Source: a virus
Taxonomy: Duplodnaviria > Heunggongvirae > Uroviricota > Caudoviricetes
Strand: one strand, 5' to 3'
DNA length: 8,684 bases
Virus record (IMG/VR): IMGVR_UViG_2909246061_000003
Location: 1 to 8,684 of that record
Made by a program: the position numbers and the translations under genes. Below, piece after piece: positions 1 to 8,684 of this stretch. The notes under the pieces were generated by a model. The model searched no databases and had not been told where the DNA came from. It was given only the letters and a program-made list of their open reading frames with translations. The number at the start of each line of letters is the position of its first letter. Position 1 is the stretch's first letter.

Positions 1-192
1 TCAGGAGCATTTCTGATTAACACCACCGTTAAGAATCCACCCCTCAACAGCTTCACGAAGGTATGATTTGGGGTGGGTTCTGACTGGCTTCGGAAATCCG
101 TGCCGTTTGGTATAGTTCCAGATTGTCTGACGTGATGAAACACCGAGCTTGTTCATCACTTCTTTCTCAGGAATCAGGCTGGTATCGGTCAT
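1..192 (-). CDS. AlpA/Xis-family small winged-helix DNA-binding protein (putative prophage excisionase)
   Basis: Complete 63-aa ORF, ATG at 192-190 and stop at 3-1. The pattern KEV-x3-LGVS-x2-TIW-x5-GFPKPV followed by W-I is typical of HTH_17/AlpA-excisionase proteins. It lies at the distal end of the leftward early operon, where lambdoid xis genes sit. An int gene would lie left of the window. Confidence 0.7.
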   Translation of the reverse strand: MTDTSLIPEKEVMNKLGVSSRQTIWNYTKRHGFPKPVRTHPKSYLREAVEGWILNGGVNQKCS

Positions 193-204
193 CTTAATTC
201 TCCA

Positions 205-233
205 GGCAAAAAGAAACCGCCATCAGGCGGCTT
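205..233 (-). terminator. Rho-independent terminator downstream of the 55-aa ORF
   Basis: On the minus strand: AAGCCGCC-TGAT-GGCGGTTT hairpin (214-233, GC core of 5 bp) followed by CTTTTT (205-213). The stop codon of the 55-aa ORF lies in the loop. Confidence 0.6.
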
Positions 234-390
234 GGTGTTCTTTCAGTTCTTCAATTCGAATATTGGTTACGTCTGCATGCGCTATCTGCGCCCATATCAT
301 CCAGTGGTTATAGCAGTCGTTGATGCCCTCTGCTTCGATAACTCTGTTGAATGGTTCTCCATTCCATTCACCTGTGACTCGGAAGTGCAT
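223..390 (-). CDS. Small prophage protein, 55 aa, unknown function
   Basis: Not in the supplied ORF track because it is under 60 aa. ATG at 390-388, TGA at 225-223. Translation: MHFRVTGEWNGEPFNRVIEAEGINDCYNHWMIWAQIAHADVTNIRIEELKEHQAA. GGAG lies 7 nt upstream of the ATG, and a terminator follows immediately. Confidence 0.55.
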   Translation of the reverse strand: MHFRVTGEWNGEPFNRVIEAEGINDCYNHWMIWAQIAHADVTNIRIEELKEHQAA

Positions 391-402
391 TTATCATCTC
401 CA

Positions 403-459
403 TAAAACAAAACTCGCCGTAGCGAGTTCAGATAAAAGAAAACCCGCACTCGGCGGGTT
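403..459 (-). terminator. Tandem rho-independent terminators (minus strand)
   Basis: Hairpin B: AACCCGC / GCGGGTT (441-447 / 453-459), followed on the minus strand by TTCTTTTAT. Hairpin A: AACTCGC / GCGAGTT (411-417 / 422-428), followed by TTGTTTTA. Neither has a T-run on the plus strand, so both are minus-specific. Confidence 0.6.
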
Positions 460-479
460 CGCATTCGTTCAAATTGCGT

Positions 480-761
480 TTACTTCTTGGCGTTCTGTTC
501 ATCCATATCGATATACCATGGGTTGCTTCCCTTGGGCATGTTTAACGACTGCTCGCGATAGTATCTGATGCGCTCCATGAAATACTCGCGTGAGTGCTCA
601 GGTTGCTCTCATGATACCTGCTCAGTGATAACAGGTATGTTAAGGCGCTCTCTGTACTCCATGCCTGATGCTGCAAGGTCAACGTTTACCTTGTTCTGTT
701 TTTCTTTCGATTTCTCGGCGATGTTATGCCTGACATTGTCAACCCGCCTCCTTCTGAACAT
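480..761 (-). pseudogene. Small early-left ORF interrupted by one in-frame TGA (50 codons + stop + 42 codons)
   Basis: ATG at 761 to TGA at 611-609 gives MFRRRRVDNVRHNIAEKSKEKQNKVNVDLAASGMEYRERLNIPVITEQVS. The same frame continues to TAA at 482-480 as EQPEHSREYFMERIRYYREQSLNMPKGSNPWYIDMDEQNAKK. The distal part has only an internal ATG (578) with no Shine-Dalgarno. The 5' end overlaps the upstream 80-aa ORF by 23 nt. Confidence 0.4.
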
Positions 762-981
762 AACGGTTATAAATCAGTCCCTGAGGGCCATAAGGAAGCG
801 GGATGTGCAACTCCTCTGGTTCAGAAACTATCCATTCTCCGGCCATCTCCGCTGGAGAGGTAATGATAAGTTGTTTGCTAATAAAAGGACCACTCCTCTC
901 AACAACAAGCTTACCATCTTCATTAATAAAAGCTTGGATGTCAGGTGTGCTTCCACACTTGGTGATGCAGCGTTTGAACAT
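739..981 (-). CDS. Hypothetical prophage protein, 80 aa
   Basis: Track ORF 739..1023, trimmed to ATG 981 (MFKRCITKCGSTPDIQ...). That ATG is preceded by a GGGGGGA purine tract 7 nt upstream. The longer version would begin inside the putative promoter. I recognise no family. Confidence 0.5.
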   Translation of the reverse strand: MFKRCITKCGSTPDIQAFINEDGKLVVERSGPFISKQLIITSPAEMAGEWIVSEPEELHIPLPYGPQGLIYNRYVQKEAG

Positions 982-1011
982 TTTGTGTCCCCCCATTTTA
1001 TGTACGGGGTA

Positions 1012-1041
1012 ATTATAACACATTGAAATATAGTAATATTT
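1012..1041 (-). promoter_or_regulatory. Candidate extended -10 promoter with an upstream AT palindrome, driving the 80-aa ORF
   Basis: The minus strand reads TGTTATAAT (TGn + TATAAT; plus coordinates 1012-1020) about 30 nt upstream of ATG 981. The palindrome AAATAT-AGTA-ATATTT (1026-1041) occupies the -35/spacer region. I found no good -35 hexamer. Confidence 0.35.
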
Positions 1042-1107
1042 GACGTAGATTTCTTTTGATCTATAAGCGATTTTTTAATGCTTTTAAGTTATAAATACTT
1101 GTTTTCA

Positions 1108-1524
1108 TCACCCATCTTGCTGCGGTGCTACTATTGAAAAGTGCTCACACCCTTTAGCCCAAATAGTTTTGATAGTTGTCCAACTGACTGGAACCTTGAT
1201 TTCGATTCTCCCGCTACAGTCACAAGTTTCGCAATCATCATCACCAAAGCATTCCGGGCAGCTTATAAACGTAGTTTCTGAAAATTCACCGGATAGCACA
1301 CCCTTAGCGCCGTTCTCGGCTGTTAGTCTCTTCGGCACCATGACCCAACCATCCGGAATTACCGGAGAGTTGCCGGGTTCTTTAATGTGCAAGCGAGGCT
1401 CACCATCTTTTGGCTCAGGCCACTGGCGCTCCATGTTGATCTTCAATTTATCTTCCATAGCAGCGGTAATTTCAGCATCGCTGATGCCAGCACGGCGCTG
1501 TGCATCCCACAACAGGAAATGCAT
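1108..1524 (-). pseudogene. Ead/Ea22-like early protein, 5'-truncated fragment
   Basis: The 138-aa ORF begins mid-domain. From memory, ..CMHFLLWDAQRRAGISDAEITAAMEDKLKINMERQWPEP resembles the C-terminal half of the MazG-like DUF550 module of lambdoid Ea22-type proteins. A Cys-rich module follows (CPEC..CETCDC). The frame stays open upstream to 1554 with no further start. Lambda-like nutR sequence begins at about 1565, so the 5' part was deleted. Confidence 0.55.
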
Positions 1525-1566
1525 ACAGTACGGAACTAAACGCGGAAAAGCCGCTTAAGACATTCC

Positions 1567-1598
1567 CGCTCTTACACATCCCAGCCCTGAAAAAGGGC
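1567..1598 (+). promoter_or_regulatory. nutR site (boxA CGCTCTTA + boxB GCCCTGAAAAAGGGC)
   Basis: boxA is at 1567-1574. The boxB hairpin GCCCT-GAAAA-AGGGC is at 1584-1598. Both match lambda nutR as I recall it, and so does the flanking sequence up to the cII start. Confidence 0.8.
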
Positions 1599-1677
1599 AT
1601 CAAATTAAACCACACCTATGGTGTATGCATTTATTTGCATACATTCAATCAATTGTTATCTAAGGAAATACTTACAT
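1599..1677 (+). terminator. tR1-like Rho-dependent terminator region
   Basis: The segment ATCAAATTAAACCACACCTATGGTGTATGCATTTATTTGCATACATTCAATCAATTGTTATCTAAGG matches my recollection of the lambda nutR-cII interval, which carries tR1. A Rho-dependent terminator cannot be proven from sequence alone. Confidence 0.45.
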
Positions 1678-1700
1678 ATGCAACTTACAAGTACTCGCAA
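1668..1700 (-). promoter_or_regulatory. PRE-like CII-dependent promoter
   Basis: The minus strand reads TTGC-GAGTAC-TTGT (plus 1687-1700), then 13 nt, then AAGTAT (plus 1668-1673). The architecture and spacing match lambda PRE (TTGC-N6-TTGC, 13 nt, AAGTAT). The second repeat is TTGT rather than TTGC. Confidence 0.5.
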
Positions 1701-1956
1701 GAAAGCGAATGCAATTACAAGCAACATCCTGAATCGAATTGCTGTACGTGGTCAGCGAAAGGTTGCCGACGCGTTAGGGGTTAATGAATCGCAAATTTCG
1801 CGATGGAAAGACAGCTTCATCCCCAAAATGGGAATGCTTCTGGCTGTTCTTGAATGGGGTGTTGAAGACGAGGAGTTGGCGGAACTGGCTAAGCAAGTAG
1901 CCAGAATGCTGACAAAAGAAAAAGCCCCGAAGAACGGCGAATTCTTCGAGGCCTGA
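1678..1956 (+). CDS. cII: Lambda CII-family transcriptional activator
   Basis: 92 aa from ATG 1678, with AAGGA upstream in the same context as lambda cII. VADALGVNESQISRWKDSFIPKMGMLLAVLEWGV aligns with lambda CII AEAVGVDKSQISRWKRDWIPKFSMLLAVLEWGV. The track start at 1618 is an upstream extension into tR1 and is rejected. Confidence 0.9.
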   Translation: MQLTSTRKKANAITSNILNRIAVRGQRKVADALGVNESQISRWKDSFIPKMGMLLAVLEWGVEDEELAELAKQVARMLTKEKAPKNGEFFEA

Positions 1957-1990
1957 TGTAGAAAGACTGGATCAATCCACAGGAGTAATT

Positions 1991-2152
1991 ATGACAAAAC
2001 GTCGTAAGAAATACCAGGAAAAAGAAGAGATTCGACACCCTGATTCACCTGAGGGATTAGTGGTAGCCGCAGCAAATAACAGGGCGTTCGCAGAACGCCT
2101 TGTTGGTGTTTACAGACTAGCCAAAGCAGGAGTGAAACATGGGCGTCGTTAA
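1991..2152 (+). CDS. Hypothetical basic 53-aa protein between cII and O
   Basis: Not in the track. CAGGAGTAATT-ATG at 1991, TAA at 2150-2152. Translation: MTKRRKKYQEKEEIRHPDSPEGLVVAAANNRAFAERLVGVYRLAKAGVKHGRR. It overlaps the O-like start by 14 nt. Its SD and first codons resemble the lambda O initiation region. Confidence 0.45.
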   Translation: MTKRRKKYQEKEEIRHPDSPEGLVVAAANNRAFAERLVGVYRLAKAGVKHGRR

Positions 2153-2936
2153 GTTAGCTGATTACAGGCCTCAACTGGAGGTCGTGGAGCATCGCGTGGC
2201 AGATACCGAAGATGGTTTCATGCGCATTGCTAACGAGATTACCGACAGTCTGCTGATGGCTGATTTAACCGTCCGGCAGTTGAAGGTGATGCTCGCTATC
2301 ATGCGCAAGACATACGGATTCAATAAGCCGATGGATCGACTCACAAACACGCAGATAGCAGCCATGACAGGTATTCATCACACTCATGTTTGCGCTGCCA
2401 AGCGCCAGCTTATCGAGCGTAAATTCCTCATTGCTGATGGCGTGAAAATCGGAGTGAACAAGGTGGTTTCTCAGTGGATTAGCCAGGACAGCTTAACATT
2501 AGCTAAAACAGCTAATAAAACATTAGCCAAGTCGGCTAATGGGTATAAGCCAAGTCAGCTAAACACAAAAGACAATATACAAAAGACAATAAATACAAAT
2601 ACCCCCTTACCCCCTAACGGGGGCGGCGATGGGCAGGTTAAACCTGAACGTCGCAAGGCAGAACGAATCGACTACGAATCCTTCCTGAACGCCTACAACA
2701 CCGAAGTCGGTGACAGACTGCCACACGCTGTTGCGGTCAACGAGAAACGCAAACGCCGCCTGAAGAAAATCATCCCGCAACTGAAAACGCCAAACGTGGA
2801 CGGTTTCAGAGCGTATGTCAGGGCGTTTGTGCATCAGGCCAAGCCGTTTTACTTCGGAGACAACGACACGGGCTGGACGGCCGATTTTGATTACCTGCTG
2901 AGGGAAGACTCGTTAACGGGAGTTCGGGAAGCGTAG
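2139..2936 (+). CDS. Lambda O-family replication initiator, with non-lambda C-terminal domain
   Basis: 265 aa, with AGGAG upstream of ATG 2139. The N-terminal domain aligns along its length with lambda O (RQLKVMLAIMRKTYGFNKPMDRLTNTQI vs RQFKVLLAILRKTYGWNKPMDRITDSQL). Iterons are embedded in the gene. The C-terminal part (..FYFGDNDTGWTADFDYLLRED..) is unlike lambda O. The last codons and the stop lie in sequence that looks like the lambda Q 5' region, so the 3' end is probably junction-derived. Confidence 0.85.
   Translation: MGVVKLADYRPQLEVVEHRVADTEDGFMRIANEITDSLLMADLTVRQLKVMLAIMRKTYGFNKPMDRLTNTQIAAMTGIHHTHVCAAKRQLIERKFLIADGVKIGVNKVVSQWISQDSLTLAKTANKTLAKSANGYKPSQLNTKDNIQKTINTNTPLPPNGGGDGQVKPERRKAERIDYESFLNAYNTEVGDRLPHAVAVNEKRKRRLKKIIPQLKTPNVDGFRAYVRAFVHQAKPFYFGDNDTGWTADFDYLLREDSLTGVREA
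2479..2600 (+). repeat. ori-lambda-type origin: four palindromic iterons plus an AT-rich tract
   Basis: The iterons are TTAGCCAGGACAGCTTAA (2479-2496), TTAGCTAAAACAGCTAA (2499-2515), TTAGCCAAGTCGGCTAA (2523-2539) and TAAGCCAAGTCAGCTAA (2546-2562). They are spaced 20-24 bp apart. An A-rich tract (2563-2600) follows and contains a 13-bp direct repeat, ACAAAAGACAATA, at 2565-2577 and 2579-2591. The layout inside the O gene is the same as in lambda. Confidence 0.7.
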
Positions 2937-2962
2937 CTAAATTTCATTCGCCAAAAAGCCCG

Positions 2963-3541
2963 ATGATGAGCGACTCACCACGGGCTACGGCTTCTGACTC
3001 TCTTTCCGGTACTGATGTGATGGCTGCTATGGGGATGGCGCAATCACAAGCCGGATTCGGTATGGCTGCATTCTGTGGTAAGCACGAACTCAGCCAGAAC
3101 GACAAACAAAAGGCTATCAACTATCTGATGCAATTTGCACACAAGGTATCGGGGAAATACCGTGGTGTGGCAAAGATCGAAGGAAATACTAAGGCAAAGG
3201 TACTGCAAGTGCTCGCAACATTCGCTTATGCGGATTATTGCCGTAGTGCCGCGACGCCGGGGGCAAGATGCAGAGATTGCCACGGTACAGGCCGTGTGGT
3301 TGATATAGCAAAAACAGAGCAGTGGGGGAGAGTTGTTGAGAAAGAGTGCGGAAGATGCAAAGGTGTCGGCTATTCAAGGATGCCAGCAAGCGCCGCATAT
3401 CGCGCTGTAACGATGCTAATTCCAAACCTCACCCAACCCACCTGGTCACGCACTGTTAAGCCGCTGTATGACGCTCTGGTGGTGCAATGCCACAAAGAAG
3501 AGTCAATCGCAGACAACATTTTGAACGCGGTCACACGTTAG
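2963..3541 (+). CDS. Q: Late-gene antiterminator Q (lambda Q type), missing the first ~15 codons
   Basis: The 192-aa product is near-identical to my recollection of lambda Q residues 16-207 (MMSDSPRATASDSLSGTDVMAAMGMAQSQAGFGMAAFCGKHELSQNDKQ...CRDCHGTGR...CGRCKGVGY...NILNAVTR). The Q frame upstream reads ..SVAKFHSPKSP, as in lambda, but has no start codon back to the stop at 2888-2890. ATG 2963 has no SD. Confidence 0.85.
   Translation: MMSDSPRATASDSLSGTDVMAAMGMAQSQAGFGMAAFCGKHELSQNDKQKAINYLMQFAHKVSGKYRGVAKIEGNTKAKVLQVLATFAYADYCRSAATPGARCRDCHGTGRVVDIAKTEQWGRVVEKECGRCKGVGYSRMPASAAYRAVTMLIPNLTQPTWSRTVKPLYDALVVQCHKEESIADNILNAVTR
3186..3218 (-). promoter_or_regulatory. PaQ-like CII-dependent antisense promoter inside Q
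   Basis: The minus strand reads TTGC-GAGCAC-TTGC (plus 3205-3218), then 13 nt, then TAGTAT (plus 3186-3191). This is the CII tetrad-repeat architecture, located where lambda PaQ is known to sit. Confidence 0.55.
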
Positions 3542-3583
3542 CAGCATGATTGCCACGGATGGCAACATATTAACGGCATAATA

Positions 3584-3625
3584 TTGACTTTTTGAATAAA
3601 GTTGGGTAAATTTGACATCAACGAT
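3584..3625 (+). promoter_or_regulatory. Late promoter PR' with Q-binding/qut region and sigma-dependent pause element
   Basis: TTGACT (3584-3589), a 17-nt spacer TTTTGAATAAAGTTGGG, TAAATT (3607-3612), then the -10-like AACGAT at 3620-3625. This nearly matches lambda PR'/qut as I recall it. Confidence 0.8.
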
Positions 3626-3647
3626 GGATAAATGCACTCGTTAAATA

Positions 3648-3677
3648 AAGCCCTGAGTTAATAGCTCTGGGCTTTTT
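3648..3677 (+). terminator. Rho-independent terminator ~30-60 nt downstream of the PR' start (tR'-like, short leader RNA)
   Basis: AAAGCCCTGAG / CTCTGGGCTTT stem (one T:T mismatch) with loop TTAATAG, followed by the T5 run at 3673-3677. It would give a transcript of about 58 nt from about 3620. Confidence 0.65.
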
Positions 3678-3957
3678 GCGTTTTAAGCACGGCCTTTCTG
3701 AAAGCACATCAAACCAAATACCAGACAGACAATACCCTCACCTTATAGGGACACTTGCTTCAACAGGAGGGACGGTTAGGACCGCCATCCTATATGGGAC
3801 GACCGCCAATAGAACCACGGCCACGGTAATAGAACTCTTCAGAGATGGCACAGTCGCTGCCGGGCATACTTTTACGCTGAGAGATATTTCTTTTGGAGAC
3901 AGCAGGGCTCTAGGGGCTGATTTTGGAGGCTCCTTCGGGAATCTGTATAAGTTCTAA
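3649..3957 (+). pseudogene. Start-less open frame, possible 3' remnant of a late (tail fibre/spike?) gene
   Basis: The frame is open from 3649 to TAA 3955-3957. It contains no ATG at all, and the only start is a TTG inside the terminator. The peptide is Gly/Thr-rich (..GTLASTGGTVRTAILYGTTANRTTATVIELFRDGTVAAGHTFTLRD..). It converges on gtrC, as tail genes do in gtr-carrying phages. The functional assignment is a guess. Confidence 0.3.
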
Positions 3958-3958
3958 T

Positions 3959-3976
3959 CGGCCGCATCAGCGGCCG
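3959..3976. terminator. GC-rich hairpin between convergent units
   Basis: CGGCCGC-ATCA-GCGGCCG, a 7-bp stem. It lies 1 nt after the plus-frame stop and 7 nt beyond the gtrC stop. There is a weak T-rich run on the plus side (TATCTCTTT) and none on the minus side. Confidence 0.45.
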
Positions 3977-3983
3977 TATCTCT

Positions 3984-5585
3984 TTACAGATAAGCGACGA
4001 AATAGCCGTCAATTTTCTTTATTTTAAGTTTGTCGCCATAGATGGATAGGGGCTTCTTGAGCCATGTATCGTCTGTGGCGACATATATCTCATTATTCCT
4101 TAGCGTACCCTTAGCCTTAATTTCGGCTATATATCTTTTGTTATTATCTATCGCTGCTTTGTCTGCTCTAGCAAAATACCCAAAATTAAGTTTCATTTTT
4201 TCTGAAGAAGCAAATTCAGCAAATGGGAGCCAATGTCTTAAGCTGAACTCATCGTAATCAGTGGTTATGATAGTGTCCTTCCCTTTGGAGATGACTTCCC
4301 ACTCTTTACTCAACATTTGAGAGCTGTATGGCTTACCAGTATATATCTCTCGAACGGCTTTGAAAAAGTTGCTTTCATCCGCCACTGATATTAATAGAAT
4401 AGGGAGCAAGACATAAGCAGAACTTTTCGAGGTTTTTGCTAAGTATGCCAAAACAATCAACATCAAGATCATCGTCACCGGCCAGAAGAACCGACCAGAA
4501 GAGCGAAAAACGCCACCAACCTTCATGAGAAAGTCATTCATTGGAATTTCAATGAGATTAAATCCATAAAAGTTAATTCGATAAGTTATAGAAACGGCAG
4601 CCAGAACTAAACAGAAGTACAATACAGGAGATTTTATAATTCTCCTGAAATCTATGGACTTTCTTAAAGAGGAGTCTATCAGCATAAACAAAAATAGCGT
4701 GATGATGCCTAATCCTAGATAATTTATACCCTCAAAGTTAGCCTGTTGACTCCCATGACTCAAGATAAGATGTGAGTATCTCTGGTCTCCTGGGTTGAAC
4801 CAGCCGGCAAGATCCATGTTAAGGAATCCGAATCCAGGGTATGGGTCAGAGCCTTTAATAACAAAGTATCCGGTAGCATACATTGCGAGAAATATTAACA
4901 CAGAGTAACACGCGAAAAAGAATGCCGATCTTTTTAAAGATAAACGGTTTGTGTTCAGTTTGTTTAAAATGTCAAATGCAAAAATTAAATACACCATTAT
5001 CAGCAAATATGCATGAATGGTGACTGAGAGAACTAAAATAGCAGCCCATCTTTTAAAGCAAAAAGACCTATTGATATAAAGGTAAAATCCAAAAAGAATT
5101 AGCCACTGAGCGCCTAATGCAAAGTGACCACCGGCACGATTTAAGAATATTGGTGCAATGCAGAAGAAGCATGAACCTATTGCAGAGAATATCTCATCCT
5201 TTGTTAACTTACGAAGAACCAAATACGCAGAAAACGTCATAAGCACAAAGCAAAGATACATCCAAAGCCCGTGATATTGAAATCTGGCGGGGAGAAAGTC
5301 GCTAAAAGGCTTGAATATGAAGGCCATAATTGGGATTGAGTCGGTGTAAACGATAGACCCACCTACACCCATCCCATAGTTATAATTTAGGCCAAGGGGC
5401 CACTGCAACAACGGAGTATTTCGGAAGAAATTCCATCCTGACCAGCTTTGACCAGGATCACCTATCATAAGCCATCCAACTCTTTTGAAGTCCAGCACAT
5501 TCACACCAACATACATAGCAAACATTGATGTCGTGAATATAAACATAAATAAGGACGCTAAAATCCTTTTTTGTGCCTTAGTCAT
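3984..5585 (-). CDS. GtrC-type serotype-specific O-antigen glycosyltransferase (polytopic membrane protein)
   Basis: 533 aa, the third gene of a gtrA-gtrB-X operon, overlapping gtrB by 8 nt. It has many hydrophobic segments, loop motifs such as [14 protein letters not shown] and [10 protein letters not shown], and a hydrophilic C-terminal domain of about 130 aa. The DNA is strongly AT-rich. Acceptor and linkage specificity cannot be read from the sequence. Confidence 0.8.
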
Positions 5586-6501
5586 TGTGTTTATTCCTTA
5601 AGATGTAACGAGGCCTAGCCTTGACTTCAATATATATTCTTCCGATATATTCACCAAGAACGCCAATGCCGATAAGTTGAATCCCGCCCAAGAACAGGAT
5701 TGAAACAAGGAGTGAAGGATATCCTCTCACGGCATTTCCAAATGCAATAGTATCGATGATCATCCAGGCTCCGTAGATAAATGCAAGCCCAGCGACTAGT
5801 AATCCAATATAAGTCCACATACGTAGAGGGAATGTAGAAAAGCTAGTAATCCCTTCTAGAGCTAAATTCCAAAGCTTCCAGCCATTAAACTTTGTGCAAC
5901 CAGCGACTCGCTCAGCTCTGGCGTATTCTACTACATCTGTTTTCCCGCCAACCCAAGACAAAACGCCCTTCATGAACAAGTTTCTTTCTGGCATTAGTTT
6001 GATATTTTCTACCACTTCTCGTGACATTAAACGGAAGTCACCGACGTTCTCTTCAATTTTGGGATTGCTGATTTTATTGTGTAGCTTATAGAACCACTCA
6101 GCTGATTTTCGCTTTAAACGACCGTCAGTAGACCTGTCTGTACGTTTGGCCAGAACCATATCCGCCCCAGCCTGCCACTTCTCAATTAGGTGGGGGATTA
6201 CTTCAATTGGGTCCTGCAGATCTACATCAATCGGAATGACCGCGTCGCCTGTAGCTTGGTCAAGGCCAGCAAACAAAGCCGGTTCCTTTCCGAAGTTACG
6301 CGTGAAGGAGAGAGGAACTACGAGTGGGTCAGCAATGGCAAGCGCGTTAATAATTGATTCTGTAGCGTCTTTGCTACCGTCGTTAATGAAGACTATTTCG
6401 ACTTCATGCTGCTGAAGCCCTTCAAATTCCCGCACGGTTTTATAGAAGATTGGAATTGCTTCCTCTTCATTAAACACAGGAACGACCAGAGAAATTTTCA
6501 T
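5578..6501 (-). CDS. gtrB: Bactoprenol (undecaprenyl-phosphate) glucosyltransferase GtrB, GT2 family
   Basis: 307 aa. [17 protein letters not shown]...INDGSKD...PIDVDLQDP, plus two C-terminal TM segments, is the classic GtrB/GT2 signature. There is an ATGA overlap with gtrA (6498-6501). Confidence 0.95.
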
Positions 6502-6860
6502 TTCACATCCCTAAAGACAATGAACTTTGAATAAATAAACCCGCACACCAGACTGATGGCGGAGAACAGAATTAAGGTGATGATTGGTGCCAGACCAGAT
6601 TTATCCGCCGCCCAACCCACAGCTGCGCTAAGCGTCCCCATAAAGCCGACGTAAAGCATGTATCGCATGGTTGTTGTGGATGACTTAAACGTGAATCTGG
6701 CATTTGCGAAGAAGCTAAATGACACAGCCACAACGAACCCGGCAAAGTTGCCAAGGGCCTGTCCTGTATGGAATGCATAGATGCAAATTGCGAACACTAC
6801 CCAGTGAATGAGCGTGTTAATGACACCTATCGATGTGTACTTGGCGAATAACTTTAACAT
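6498..6860 (-). CDS. gtrA: GtrA flippase for bactoprenol-linked glucose
   Basis: 120 aa from ATG 6860. [23 protein letters not shown]...[12 protein letters not shown]...YSKFIVFRD matches phage GtrA proteins, which are about 120 aa. The track's GTG 6923 start adds 21 non-homologous residues and is rejected. Confidence 0.9.
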
Positions 6861-6936
6861 TATAGAAATCAGTGAATTCGGAAAGGTCTGAAGTGTAGCA
6901 CCACAAACGCTATTGATCGACACCGCCGATCAGTAC

Positions 6937-6950
6937 TACTGTATTAATAT
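6937..6950. promoter_or_regulatory. Left half of a LexA (SOS) box split by the IS
   Basis: TACTGT + ATTAATAT abuts the IS left end. Together with 8275-8280 it reconstructs TACTGTATTAATATACAGTA (CTGT-N8-ACAG). Confidence 0.7.
6943..6950. repeat. Target-site duplication, left copy (ATTAATAT)
   Basis: An identical 8-mer occurs at 8267-8274, directly flanking the IS inverted repeats. An 8-bp duplication is the ISL3-family hallmark. Confidence 0.85.
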
Positions 6951-8266
6951 GGGTCTTCCCTTGTTGTGGTGGCTGAAGGCATGATAATGGTGTATTTAAT
7001 CGCCAGAGGTCACCGCCATGGACGAAAAGTCCCTCTACGCTCATATTCTCAACCTGTCCGATCCGTGGCAGGTAAAGTCCCTTTCTCTCGATGAAAATGC
7101 CGGTTCTGTTACTGTCACTATTGAGATCGCTGAAAACACCCGGCTAGCCTGTCCGGCCTGCGGTAAATCCTGTTCTGTTCACGATCACCGTCATCGTAAA
7201 TGGCGCCATCTTGATACCTGCCAGTTCACCACTATTGTTGAAGCCGATGTTCCACGAATTATGTGTCCGGAGCATGGCTGTCAGACGTTGCCTGTTCCGT
7301 GGGCTGGCCCCGGAAGCCGGTATACGTTGCTGTTCGAATTGTTCGTTCTCTCATGGCTGAAAATCAGCACCGTTGATGCTGTCAGGAAGCAACTTAAGCT
7401 CAGCTGGAATGCGGTTGACGGCATTATGACCCGGGCAGTTAAGCGAGGTCTTGCCCGGATAAAAAAGCCATTATCCGCCCGTCATATGAATGTGGATGAG
7501 GTCGCCTTTAAAAAAGGACATCGTTACATAACGGTGATCTCCGATCGCGATGGTCGGGCGCTGGCCTTAACGGATGATCGCGGCACAGAGAGTCTTGCCG
7601 GCTATCTTCGCACACTCACTGATGGGCAGTTGCTGGCTATCAAAACGCTCTCAATGGACATGAACGCGGGCTATATAAGAGCAGCGCGCATCCACTTACC
7701 CAGCGCGGTTGAGAAAATCGCCTTTGACCGCTTCCATGTGGCGAAGCAACTGGGCGAGGTAGTTGATAAAACCCGTCAGAATGAACATCCGCACCTCCCT
7801 GTTGAAAGCCGACGCCAGGCAAAAGGAACCCGCTTCCTGTGGCAGTACAGTGATAAGTGGATGACTGAATCCCGGCAGGAAAAGCTGATGTGGCTGCGTG
7901 CACAGATGAAGCTGACGAGCCAGTGCTGGGCGCTGAAAGAGCTGGCAAAGGATATCTGGAACAGGCCATGGAGCGAGGAAAGGCGGAGTGACTGGCAGAG
8001 ATGGCTGGCGCTGGCGGCTAACAGTGACGTTCCCATGATGAAAAATGCTGCGAAAACGATAGGAAAAAGGCTGTACGGGATCCTGAATGCGATGCGACAC
8101 AGTGTCTCAAACGGAAATGCGGAGGCACTTAACAGCAAGATAAGGTTGCTGAGAATAAAAGCCAGGGGATACCGAAACCGGGAGCGCTTTAAACTGGGAG
8201 TGATGTTCCACTACGGTAAGCTGAATATGGAGTTCTGAGCCTTCCCACCATGATCGGGGAAGACCC
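6951..8266 (+). mobile_element. ISL3-family insertion sequence, 1316 bp, apparently intact
   Basis: Imperfect terminal inverted repeats of about 28-30 bp. IRL is GGGTCTTCCCTTGTTGTGGTGGCTGAAGGC (6951-6980). The reverse complement of IRR is GGGTCTTCCCCGATCATGGTGGGAAGGC (8266-8239). There is a single transposase ORF and an 8-bp direct-repeat flank. Confidence 0.9.
7018..8238 (+). CDS. ISL3-family DDE transposase
   Basis: 406 aa. It has an N-terminal zinc-finger region (CPACGK...CPEHGC), a DDE core (..MDMNAGY.., ..FDRFHV.., ..SNGNAEALNSKIRLLRIKARGYRN) and the length typical of ISL3 transposases. AGAGG lies upstream of the ATG. Confidence 0.95.
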   Translation: MDEKSLYAHILNLSDPWQVKSLSLDENAGSVTVTIEIAENTRLACPACGKSCSVHDHRHRKWRHLDTCQFTTIVEADVPRIMCPEHGCQTLPVPWAGPGSRYTLLFELFVLSWLKISTVDAVRKQLKLSWNAVDGIMTRAVKRGLARIKKPLSARHMNVDEVAFKKGHRYITVISDRDGRALALTDDRGTESLAGYLRTLTDGQLLAIKTLSMDMNAGYIRAARIHLPSAVEKIAFDRFHVAKQLGEVVDKTRQNEHPHLPVESRRQAKGTRFLWQYSDKWMTESRQEKLMWLRAQMKLTSQCWALKELAKDIWNRPWSEERRSDWQRWLALAANSDVPMMKNAAKTIGKRLYGILNAMRHSVSNGNAEALNSKIRLLRIKARGYRNRERFKLGVMFHYGKLNMEF

Positions 8267-8274
8267 ATTAATAT
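8267..8274. repeat. Target-site duplication, right copy (ATTAATAT)
   Basis: See the left copy at 6943-6950. Confidence 0.85.
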
Positions 8275-8280
8275 ACAGTA
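8267..8280. promoter_or_regulatory. Right half of the split LexA (SOS) box
   Basis: ATTAATAT + ACAGTA, ending 17 nt upstream of the umuD-like ATG. Confidence 0.7.
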
Positions 8281-8297
8281 ACTATCGGAGGTGAGTT

Positions 8298-8684
8298 ATG
8301 GGATTCCCGAGTCCGGCTCAAGACTATGTTGAAGAGCGCGTATTGCTCGACAAGCGCATCATAAGCAGACCAGCGGCCACGTATTTCATGAGAGCGGGTG
8401 CAACGCATCACCGCGAAGGCATCCTGAATGGTGCTCTTCTGGTAGTGGATGCATCGCTATCACCATGTGACGGCTCGTTGCTGGTTTGCAGAATGGAAGG
8501 TGAGCTGAGGATTAAGCGATATCGCAAATCACCAAAGCCTCACCTGGAGGATTTGCAGACGGGAAGGCGTGAGGAGATACCGGCACACGATGACGGCACG
8601 AGTCCGGATGCGATATTTGGTGTGATCACCTACATCATAAACGATGCACGCTCTGGCGAGTTTGATGATTGTCTGATTATGTGA
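8298..8684 (+). CDS. umuD: UmuD'-like S24-family protein (Pol V accessory subunit homologue lacking the N-terminal arm)
   Basis: 128 aa, with SD GGAGG at 8287-8291 and an in-frame TGA at 8292-8294 that excludes a longer N-terminus. M-GFPSPAQDYVEERV.. aligns with E. coli UmuD from Gly25 (GFPSPAADYVEQRI..). The alignment continues through ATYF, LLVVD, ELRIKRY (Lys97 equivalent kept) and FGVI. The GDSM motif is replaced by ATHH. Confidence 0.85.
   Translation: MGFPSPAQDYVEERVLLDKRIISRPAATYFMRAGATHHREGILNGALLVVDASLSPCDGSLLVCRMEGELRIKRYRKSPKPHLEDLQTGRREEIPAHDDGTSPDAIFGVITYIINDARSGEFDDCLIM

Follow-up and report, generated by a model that had tools for sequence, protein, structure and literature searches.

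A gtr cassette with a DUF6311-family third gene, predicted to encode a GT-C membrane glycosyltransferase, in a degraded Escherichia coli prophage

We analysed a three-gene gtr cassette located at positions 3984-6860 of an 8,684-nucleotide stretch of viral DNA (IMG/VR record IMGVR_UViG_2909246061_000003, positions 1 to 8,684), hereafter the window, i.e. the whole stretch. The ORF (open reading frame) listing gives three intact genes on the minus strand, namely gtrA, gtrB and a third gene ('gtrC') whose product belongs to the Pfam family DUF6311. We consider it quite likely that a prophage left here a three-component cassette for O-antigen glucosylation (gtr) that looks functional. The three-component mechanism is textbook knowledge and the gain in that respect is incremental; what is new is the DUF6311 assignment, the predicted GT-C fold, the recurrence of this third-gene class and the tie of this particular member to O88-type hosts.

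The cassette and the predicted structure of its third product

The first gene, gtrA (6498-6860, minus strand), encodes a small membrane protein of 120 amino acids that is assigned to the GtrA family by Pfam (GtrA_DPMS_TM, PF04138, E 1.7e-14), by PHROG ('GtrA-like O-antigen conversion', E 1.6e-66 across all 120 residues) and by RefSeq (WP_072778261, GtrA family protein). A longer form of 141 amino acids with a GTG start (to 6923) was rejected, as the 120-residue ATG form is found in every homologue and annotation and the longer one crosses the predicted promoter. The second gene, gtrB (5578-6501, minus strand), encodes a GT2 bactoprenol (undecaprenyl-phosphate) glucosyltransferase of 307 amino acids (Pfam Glycos_transf_2, E 2.7e-30; PHROG GtrB, E 1.7e-180), which is 86.5-93.4 % identical to GtrB of phages BUCT554 (Enterobacter), SfIV, SfII, SfV, SfI, epsilon34 and P22. 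GtrB proteins of seroconverting phages are described as bactoprenol glucosyltransferases (PMC7685785) and, because the protein of the window is 86-93 % identical to them, it almost certainly makes undecaprenyl-phosphate-glucose as the donor. A DUF6311-family protein of 533 amino acids, predicted to be a membrane glycosyltransferase of GT-C fold, is encoded by the third gene (3984-5585, minus strand).

A first-pass annotation of the window had described an intact gtrA-gtrB cassette with an acceptor-specific membrane glycosyltransferase as third gene, the full-length genes being coupled by short overlaps and the third being markedly AT-rich and endowed with a soluble C-terminal domain of about 130 amino acids. 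Pfam, PHROG and ORF evidence, together with the sequence itself and the structural model presented below, bear out this description. The overlap between gtrA and gtrB is ATGA (4 nt) and that between gtrB and the third gene is ATGACTAA (8 nt). GC content is 46.0 % in gtrA, 44.0 % in gtrB and 38.8 % in the third gene, versus 46.9 % in the flanking phage DNA (1-3743), 52.1 % in the tailspike remnant and 52.2 % in humD. As expected of a gtr cassette, GtrA comes first, GtrB is close to characterised proteins, the third product is polytopic with little similarity to those of other cassettes, and the whole lies at a prophage end next to a tailspike gene.

The third protein was modelled with AlphaFold2 from an alignment of 73 sequences (mean predicted local distance difference test score, 91.8; predicted template modelling score, 0.92). 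Two parts were delineated. Hydropathy, DSSP assignment of the model and the 73-sequence alignment define a membrane module (residues 1 to ~403, positions 4377-5585, minus strand) of about 11 transmembrane helices, whose strongly hydrophobic segments extend to around residue 387, with a short helix (389-403) after them. The remainder (residues ~404-533, i.e. ~130 amino acids; positions 3987-4376, minus strand) is a soluble alpha/beta domain, DUF6311_C (Pfam PF25853), which is predicted to be periplasmic. The positive-inside rule suggests that the N-terminus is cytoplasmic and that both the first loop (residues 30-104, after helix 8-29) and the C-terminal domain face the periplasm.

The predicted fold is that of GT-C enzymes. 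The membrane module resembles solved GT-C structures (Pmt1/2/4, PglB/STT3, ArnT, AftA, AftD, ALG), with which the model shares the long first extracytoplasmic loop and the small C-terminal domain, at a sequence identity of 6-11 %. These enzymes use lipid-phosphate-linked sugar donors, and their acceptors are proteins, lipid A, arabinogalactan and N-glycan precursors. Residues D43, D82 and K92 of the first loop, H154, R361/R365/W368 before helix 10, and D403 are invariant in the 73 homologues. In solved GT-C enzymes, the role of catalytic base has been proposed for an Asp that directly follows helix 1 (PMC11127046). By analogy the invariant residues would have a catalytic role, the resemblance of D43 and D82 to the GT-C catalytic Asp being positional only, and the active site is probably the groove formed by the first periplasmic loop (D43, D82) and the upper membrane helices (H154, R361, R365).

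DUF6311 proteins as third gtr genes

The third protein matches DUF6311 (PF19830) with an E-value of 5.9e-64 and 217 bits, versus a cut-off of 27. DUF6311_C is precomputed for the identical protein and all its relatives; our local Pfam scan returned no match to it, possibly because the model is not in that copy. In RefSeq the identical protein (WP_072778257) is labelled only 'DUF6311 domain-containing protein'.

For comparison, seven reference third genes were scanned with Pfam and aligned by hhalign to the 73-sequence DUF6311 profile: GtrV (417 amino acids), GtrIV (437), YfdI (443), GtrII (486), P22 GtrC (486), GtrI (506) and epsilon34 GtrC (551). With 533 amino acids, the protein of the window exceeds the first six and falls below epsilon34 GtrC, so that the earlier statement that it is longer than most described Shigella GtrC-type enzymes (here 417-506 amino acids) stands. 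The reference proteins belong to Glucos_trans_II or DUF6056, give sub-threshold matches only (GtrI, GtrIV) or have no Pfam match (GtrV, YfdI). The DUF6311 profile showed no similarity to GtrI, GtrII/P22 GtrC, GtrIV, GtrV, epsilon34 GtrC or YfdI, all hhalign probabilities being below 2 %. More specifically, the third protein has neither a match to PF14264 of the GtrII-type class (hhalign probability to P22 GtrC, 1.8 %) nor one to PF19528 of the DUF6056 class (0.2 % to epsilon34 GtrC).

Wider searches gave the same picture. A tblastn search of 50,697 phage records found no relative of the third protein, none being encoded in the 141 genomes of that collection that have a GtrB homologue, and no family was assigned in PHROGs or NCBIfam. 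Comparison with PDB chains returned chance matches only, with the single sequence (E 0.78) or with the 73-sequence profile (E 0.2), and Foldseek of the model against viral predicted structures returned nothing at E <= 0.001. No near-identity to a characterised serotype-specific transferase was found. Sequences and profiles place the third gene in a separate, catalogued but uncharacterised family, which corrects the initial reading of it as a divergent GtrC.

DUF6311 comprises 4343 cluster representatives at E <= 1e-3, among which the cluster of the window protein is isolated (39 % identity to the nearest neighbouring cluster). Closer relatives (73-86 % identity) occur in E. coli, Lelliottia and Huaxiibacter, and several members of the family occupy the position of a third gtr gene. 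In Lelliottia the relative is the third gtr gene and adjoins a tailspike gene. In a P22-like prophage of another E. coli, a 552-amino-acid relative (33 % identity) stands between int-gtrA-gtrB and a P22-type tailspike gene. The relative in Enterobacter hormaechei (679 amino acids) has a tailspike gene on one side and, on the other, a umuDC-like module with gtrAB, and in a cassette-only remnant of E. coli the cassette with a DUF6311 third gene adjoins the integrase gene instead of a tailspike gene. The order gtrA-gtrB-DUF6311 is also found in genomes of Huaxiibacter, Pantoea, Lonsdalea and Erwinia. DUF6311 thus forms a class of third genes that recurs in enterobacterial prophages and had gone unrecognised; with this assignment, cassettes of the class could be recognised in genomes.

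Outside enterobacteria, a GtrB-like gene lies within 4 kb in 39 of 77 DUF6311 loci from diverse species, and GtrA-DUF6311 fusion proteins exist beside a GT2 gene. By this context, and by the gtrB adjoining the third gene in the window, the family as a whole may use a lipid-phosphate-sugar donor. Two or three tandem or nearby paralogues are frequent (Pseudomonas, Polynucleobacter, Burkholderiaceae, Acidobacteria); many of these proteins are of ~700 amino acids with an additional C-terminal extension, some carry DUF7024, and they are found in polysaccharide loci devoid of phage genes.

On a contig of a Bacteroidota metagenome-assembled genome (JAZBLX010000071), a DUF6311 gene lies beside gtrA and gtrB genes whose products are strikingly similar to the E. 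coli proteins (phmmer E 1e-41 and 2e-155, respectively). These gtr genes could be the result of horizontal transfer or of a binning error.

The cassettes of Shigella phages SfI, SfII, SfIV, SfV and SfX and of P22 are the closest known systems. Like the cassette of the window, they have the order gtrA-gtrB-third gene with overlaps, lie at a prophage end convergent with tailspike or tail-fibre genes, encode a GtrB that is 86-93 % identical and end with a gene for an integral membrane protein; P22 further has a proximal promoter with a GATC pair homologous to that of the window. Their third products, as judged from GtrI, GtrII/P22 GtrC, GtrIV and GtrV, differ in being shorter and in showing no detectable sequence or profile similarity to the window's (hhalign below 2 %). 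The GtrC of epsilon34 (DUF6056) is likewise a long third gtr product encoded next to a tailspike gene and assigned to a DUF-named family, but this is another Pfam family (hhalign 0.2 % to the DUF6311 profile). The epsilon34 record notes a similarity to NP_459550, an inner membrane protein of Salmonella LT2, which we take to be STM0557, Salmonella GtrC family III. Phage Hf4s, an equine seroconverting coliphage, was considered (one carrier strain comes from a horse) and rejected, its GtrC being described as epsilon34-like. YfdI, the third product of the E. coli K-12 element CPS-53 (yfdG-yfdH-yfdI), has neither a Pfam match nor similarity to DUF6311.

The same three-part logic is known from Gram-positive bacteria, in which a GT-C enzyme (YfhO) acts with a GtrB-like protein (CsbB) and the GtrA-like GtcA. 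It is also found in Citrobacter youngae O1, whose ORF12 is the founder of CAZy family GT136. This protein spans the membrane with 11 helices, the first of them leading into a helical periplasmic domain, and its activity depends on conserved Asp, His and Arg residues at places comparable to those of the invariant residues described above (PMC11127046). Both ORF12 and the system of the window combine a polyprenyl-phosphate sugar synthase, a GtrA-like protein and a GT-C transferase, although sugars and acceptors differ; the likeness to ORF12 was drawn by description. The cassette protein offers a tractable way into a very large, uncharacterised family (over 4000 sequence clusters), and biochemical characterisation of DUF6311 might define a new glycosyltransferase family, as was the case with GT136 (PMC11127046).

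O88 association, proposed function and retention in degraded prophages

The window aligns with the chromosome of E. coli PSS-10 in three collinear blocks of 100 % identity, and the degraded prophage containing it sits between sbcB and dacD in E. coli. The element that hosts the cassette is a lambdoid/P22-type mosaic prophage at the sbcB/dacD site. Comparison with PSS-10 and with strain 1506 confirmed that the prophage is dead and has lost most of its genes, as had been surmised. The lysis, head and tail genes are gone, a deletion common to the window and PSS-10 extending from just downstream of the Q antiterminator gene to the last 71 codons of the tailspike gene. In strain 1506, the cassette follows a full tailspike gene and terminates an apparently complete prophage, beyond which lie humD and dacD.

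Among 5426 complete E. coli genomes, only four (PSS-10, 1506, TUM12357 and A30) carry the third gene, and a sensitive blastn search of this set found no further carriers. An O88-family wzx/wzy cluster is present in 29 of these genomes, including all four carriers. The chance that four carriers would all be of O88 type is ~7e-10, a value that overstates their independence; for two independent hits it is ~3e-5. PSS-10, 1506 and TUM12357 have a common O-cluster variant and a common insertion site. This variant O88 cluster (100 % identical to that of PSS-10) contains two acyltransferase genes in addition and, upstream of rfbB, what remains of an ISAs1, and strain 582 possesses it without the third gene. 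A30 is independent, with a classic O88 cluster and the cassette at argW. When the window (3984-6860) is aligned with the A30 locus (20095-22971), nucleotide identity is 96.4 % for gtrC, 91.3 % for gtrB and 74.7 % for gtrA. The usual conservation pattern is reversed, which indicates that gtrA and gtrB were reshuffled by recombination around a conserved third gene; the third gene therefore appears to track the O88 host, gtrA and gtrB having been exchanged. The acceptor is most probably the O88-type O-antigen repeat unit. The O88 reference strain NCTC9088 lacks the third gene, and the published O88 structure is therefore probably without this modification.

The cassette is real and probably functional. 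GtrB would transfer glucose from UDP-glucose to undecaprenyl phosphate at the cytoplasmic face, GtrA would help undecaprenyl-phosphate-glucose to reach the periplasmic face, and the DUF6311 protein would then transfer the lipid-linked glucose as a side-branch onto a specific sugar of the O-antigen repeat unit. The expected effect would be lysogenic conversion, by which the parent phage and other phages specific for O88 would be prevented from adsorbing through their tailspikes and O-antigenicity would be altered. In this scheme we infer glucose as the sugar, the O-antigen as the acceptor, the catalytic residues, expression and the fitness benefit. Only tentatively, and with somewhat less than even confidence, do we go further and propose that the DUF6311 protein is the first recognisable member of a new GT-C family ('new' not being measured against CAZy) to act as a serotype-converting GtrC, that it makes an unrecognised glucosylated O88 sub-type, and that the host has kept it in at least four independently decayed prophages by blocking O88-specific phages. 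If true, this predicts an O88 variant that is missed by in silico serotyping from wzx/wzy; the branch of some O-antigens has already been attributed to gtr genes located elsewhere in the chromosome (PMC7685785).

Several points weigh against the reading as an O-antigen glucosylation cassette. The likeness to GT-C enzymes rests on a predicted structure at ~10 % sequence identity, and in the library searched the term 'DUF6311' occurred in no paper, leaving no experiment for any protein of the family. The O88 acceptor was deduced from co-occurrence in complete genomes of other strains. Of the four O88 carriers, the three with a common insertion site may form one lineage, which would reduce the association to about two independent acquisitions. 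Many DUF6311 genes of other phyla lie outside gtr cassettes and in tandem, so that donor and acceptor vary within the family. Finally, expression is uncertain, the distal half of the P22-type switch being missing and an insertion sequence (IS) lying 65 bp upstream of the predicted start.

The cassette might instead be a neutral relic, unexpressed or useless and under no selection, which is still intact only because a small number of large deletions degraded the prophage in recent time, a view that we hold to be unlikely while granting it real weight. Its copies in the window, PSS-10, 1506 and TUM12357 have 100 % nucleotide identity, i.e. are too young for point mutations, and other small prophage genes (cII, Q, xis-like) are intact ORFs as well. 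Its position at the prophage end beside attR would have spared it from internal deletions on geometrical grounds, and the loss of the distal switch half and the upstream IS also fit with a relic. However, at least four deletion patterns retain the cassette: that of the window and PSS-10; that of TUM12357, in which another internal deletion extends from the ERF gene to a baseplate fragment; that of A30, whose prophage at argW is reduced to tail-fibre genes, tailspike, gtrCBA, humD and int; and that of an E. coli contig with an 84 % relative of the third gene, in which int and gtrABC alone are left, at argW. The tailspikes adjoining the cassette in 1506 and A30 are full-length homologues (74 % identity). 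Ratios of non-synonymous to synonymous substitution rates (dN/dS) of 0.11 (versus A30) and 0.08 (versus Huaxiibacter) point to long-term purifying selection on the third gene, and both ISKox3 (see below) and the deletion edge spare the promoter core and the coding sequence. Retention of gtr genes in phage remnants is known in Salmonella (PMC3688519) and in E. coli K-12, where the remnant CPS-53 keeps int and gtrABC like the cassette remnants described here, at the site (argW/yfdC) also occupied in A30 and in the cassette-only contig.

Survival in an otherwise deleted prophage had led the first-pass annotation to argue for selection on O-antigen modification. For that argument the window alone is insufficient; the four or more routes of decay, the dN/dS values and the O88 link make it more plausible. 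The retention pattern and dN/dS are compatible with selection for the cassette and are no proof of it, and the argument is weakened by gtr retention being a known pattern, by the youth of the identical copies and by the end position.

It is improbable that the DUF6311 protein is a GT-C enzyme acting on another periplasmic acceptor (enterobacterial common antigen, lipopolysaccharide core, capsule or protein) or with another sugar. The large size of the family, its occurrence across many phyla in polysaccharide loci free of phage genes, its frequent tandem paralogues and extra domains, and the many acceptors served by the GT-C class would all accommodate such a role. In the present case, however, the gene is part of a canonical phage gtr cassette beside a tailspike gene, its GtrB partner is 86-93 % identical to those of Shigella and Salmonella seroconverting phages, and it co-occurs with one O-antigen type only despite differing gtrA/gtrB alleles and insertion sites. 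As for an O-antigen acyltransferase, like Salmonella GtrC family II and that of BTP1, some Salmonella 'gtrC' genes have been implicated in O-antigen modifications other than glucosylation (PMC4413052, PMC9558356), but we dismissed this identity as very improbable, as neither Pfam nor NCBIfam finds an acyltransferase-3 domain in the third protein, its predicted fold is GT-C, and gtrB is full-length here while Salmonella family II operons have internal gtrB deletions (PMC3688519).

Control region and flanking features

The proximal portion of the P22 gtr regulatory region has a close match in the 90 bp that precede gtrA, and a gtr promoter (6885-6931, minus strand) was predicted by this homology only. 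Its two GATC sites, at 6928-6931 and 6915-6918, begin 13 bp apart and correspond to GATC3 and GATC4 of P22, and its -10 hexamer TACACT at 6892-6897 lies within a TGnTACACT element common to P22. In P22, GATC3 and GATC4 lie at -46 and -33 relative to the mapped start (PMC2909390), which predicts a gtr transcription start near 6885 in the window. A simple scan for the sigma-70 consensus missed this promoter.

The phase-variable Dam/OxyR switch of the P22 type comprises two GATC pairs with 13-bp spacing, i.e. four sites, which overlap three OxyR half-sites upstream of the promoter (PMC2909390). Here the proximal GATC pair and the promoter core only were found. The distal GATC pair and the OxyR(A) site, on which phase variation of the P22 type depends, are missing; already in the ancestral sequence the divergent gene humD has its LexA box and ribosome-binding site in their place. 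In P22 deletion constructs, a promoter with the core and the proximal site alone is constitutively active (PMC2909390), and gtr expression in the window is plausible by analogy.

The neighbour of gtrA, humD (8298-8684, plus strand), encodes a umuD-like S24 peptidase (NCBIfam HumD, E 6.6e-62) and is preceded by a near-perfect LexA (SOS) box, TACTGTATTAATATACAGTA, which is intact in PSS-10. In the window, a 1316-bp copy of ISKox3 (ISL3 family; 6951-8266, plus strand), identified by its transposase domains, its terminal inverted repeats and its 100 % identity to other ISKox3 copies, sits in the middle of this box. The two halves of the box lie at 6937-6950 and 8267-8280, and the spacer of the box, ATTAATAT, is the 8-bp target duplication (6943-6950 and 8267-8274). 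Because ISKox3 splits the LexA box, humD is severed from its upstream region and probably from SOS control. The IS is absent from PSS-10, 1506 and TUM12357, and begins ~65 bp upstream (about -66) of the predicted gtr start. The ancestral gtr promoter shares its control region with the LexA operator, and ISKox3 could conceivably have uncoupled the promoter from upstream regulation.

At the other end of the cassette, the 3' remnant of the tailspike gene (3744-3957, plus strand; last 71 codons) marks the right edge of the late-gene deletion. Its product is identical to residues 680-750 of the 750-residue tailspike of strain 1506, and the 100 % identity to that strain starts at position 3744. A GC-rich hairpin (3959-3976, CGGCCGC-ATCA-GCGGCCG) lies between the convergent stops of the tailspike remnant and the third gene and is a candidate terminator; terminator-like sites in the region are not above shuffled expectation, which makes it weak evidence. 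A scan of the window with Rfam found no RNA family. The deletion places the region that follows the Q gene (Q, 2963-3541; region, 3542-3743) against the tailspike remnant. Transcription starting downstream of Q would now meet the convergent third gene at its 3' end, this hairpin being all that separates them.

Relative to PSS-10, the window has further lost 3.6 kb of early genes (Ea22-like, Gp157-like, recT and others). This deletion corresponds to positions 13530-17119 of the PSS-10 locus, with a junction at 1524-1528 in the window (~5 bp overlap), and cuts short a DUF550/dATP-dGTP pyrophosphohydrolase-like ORF (1108-1524).

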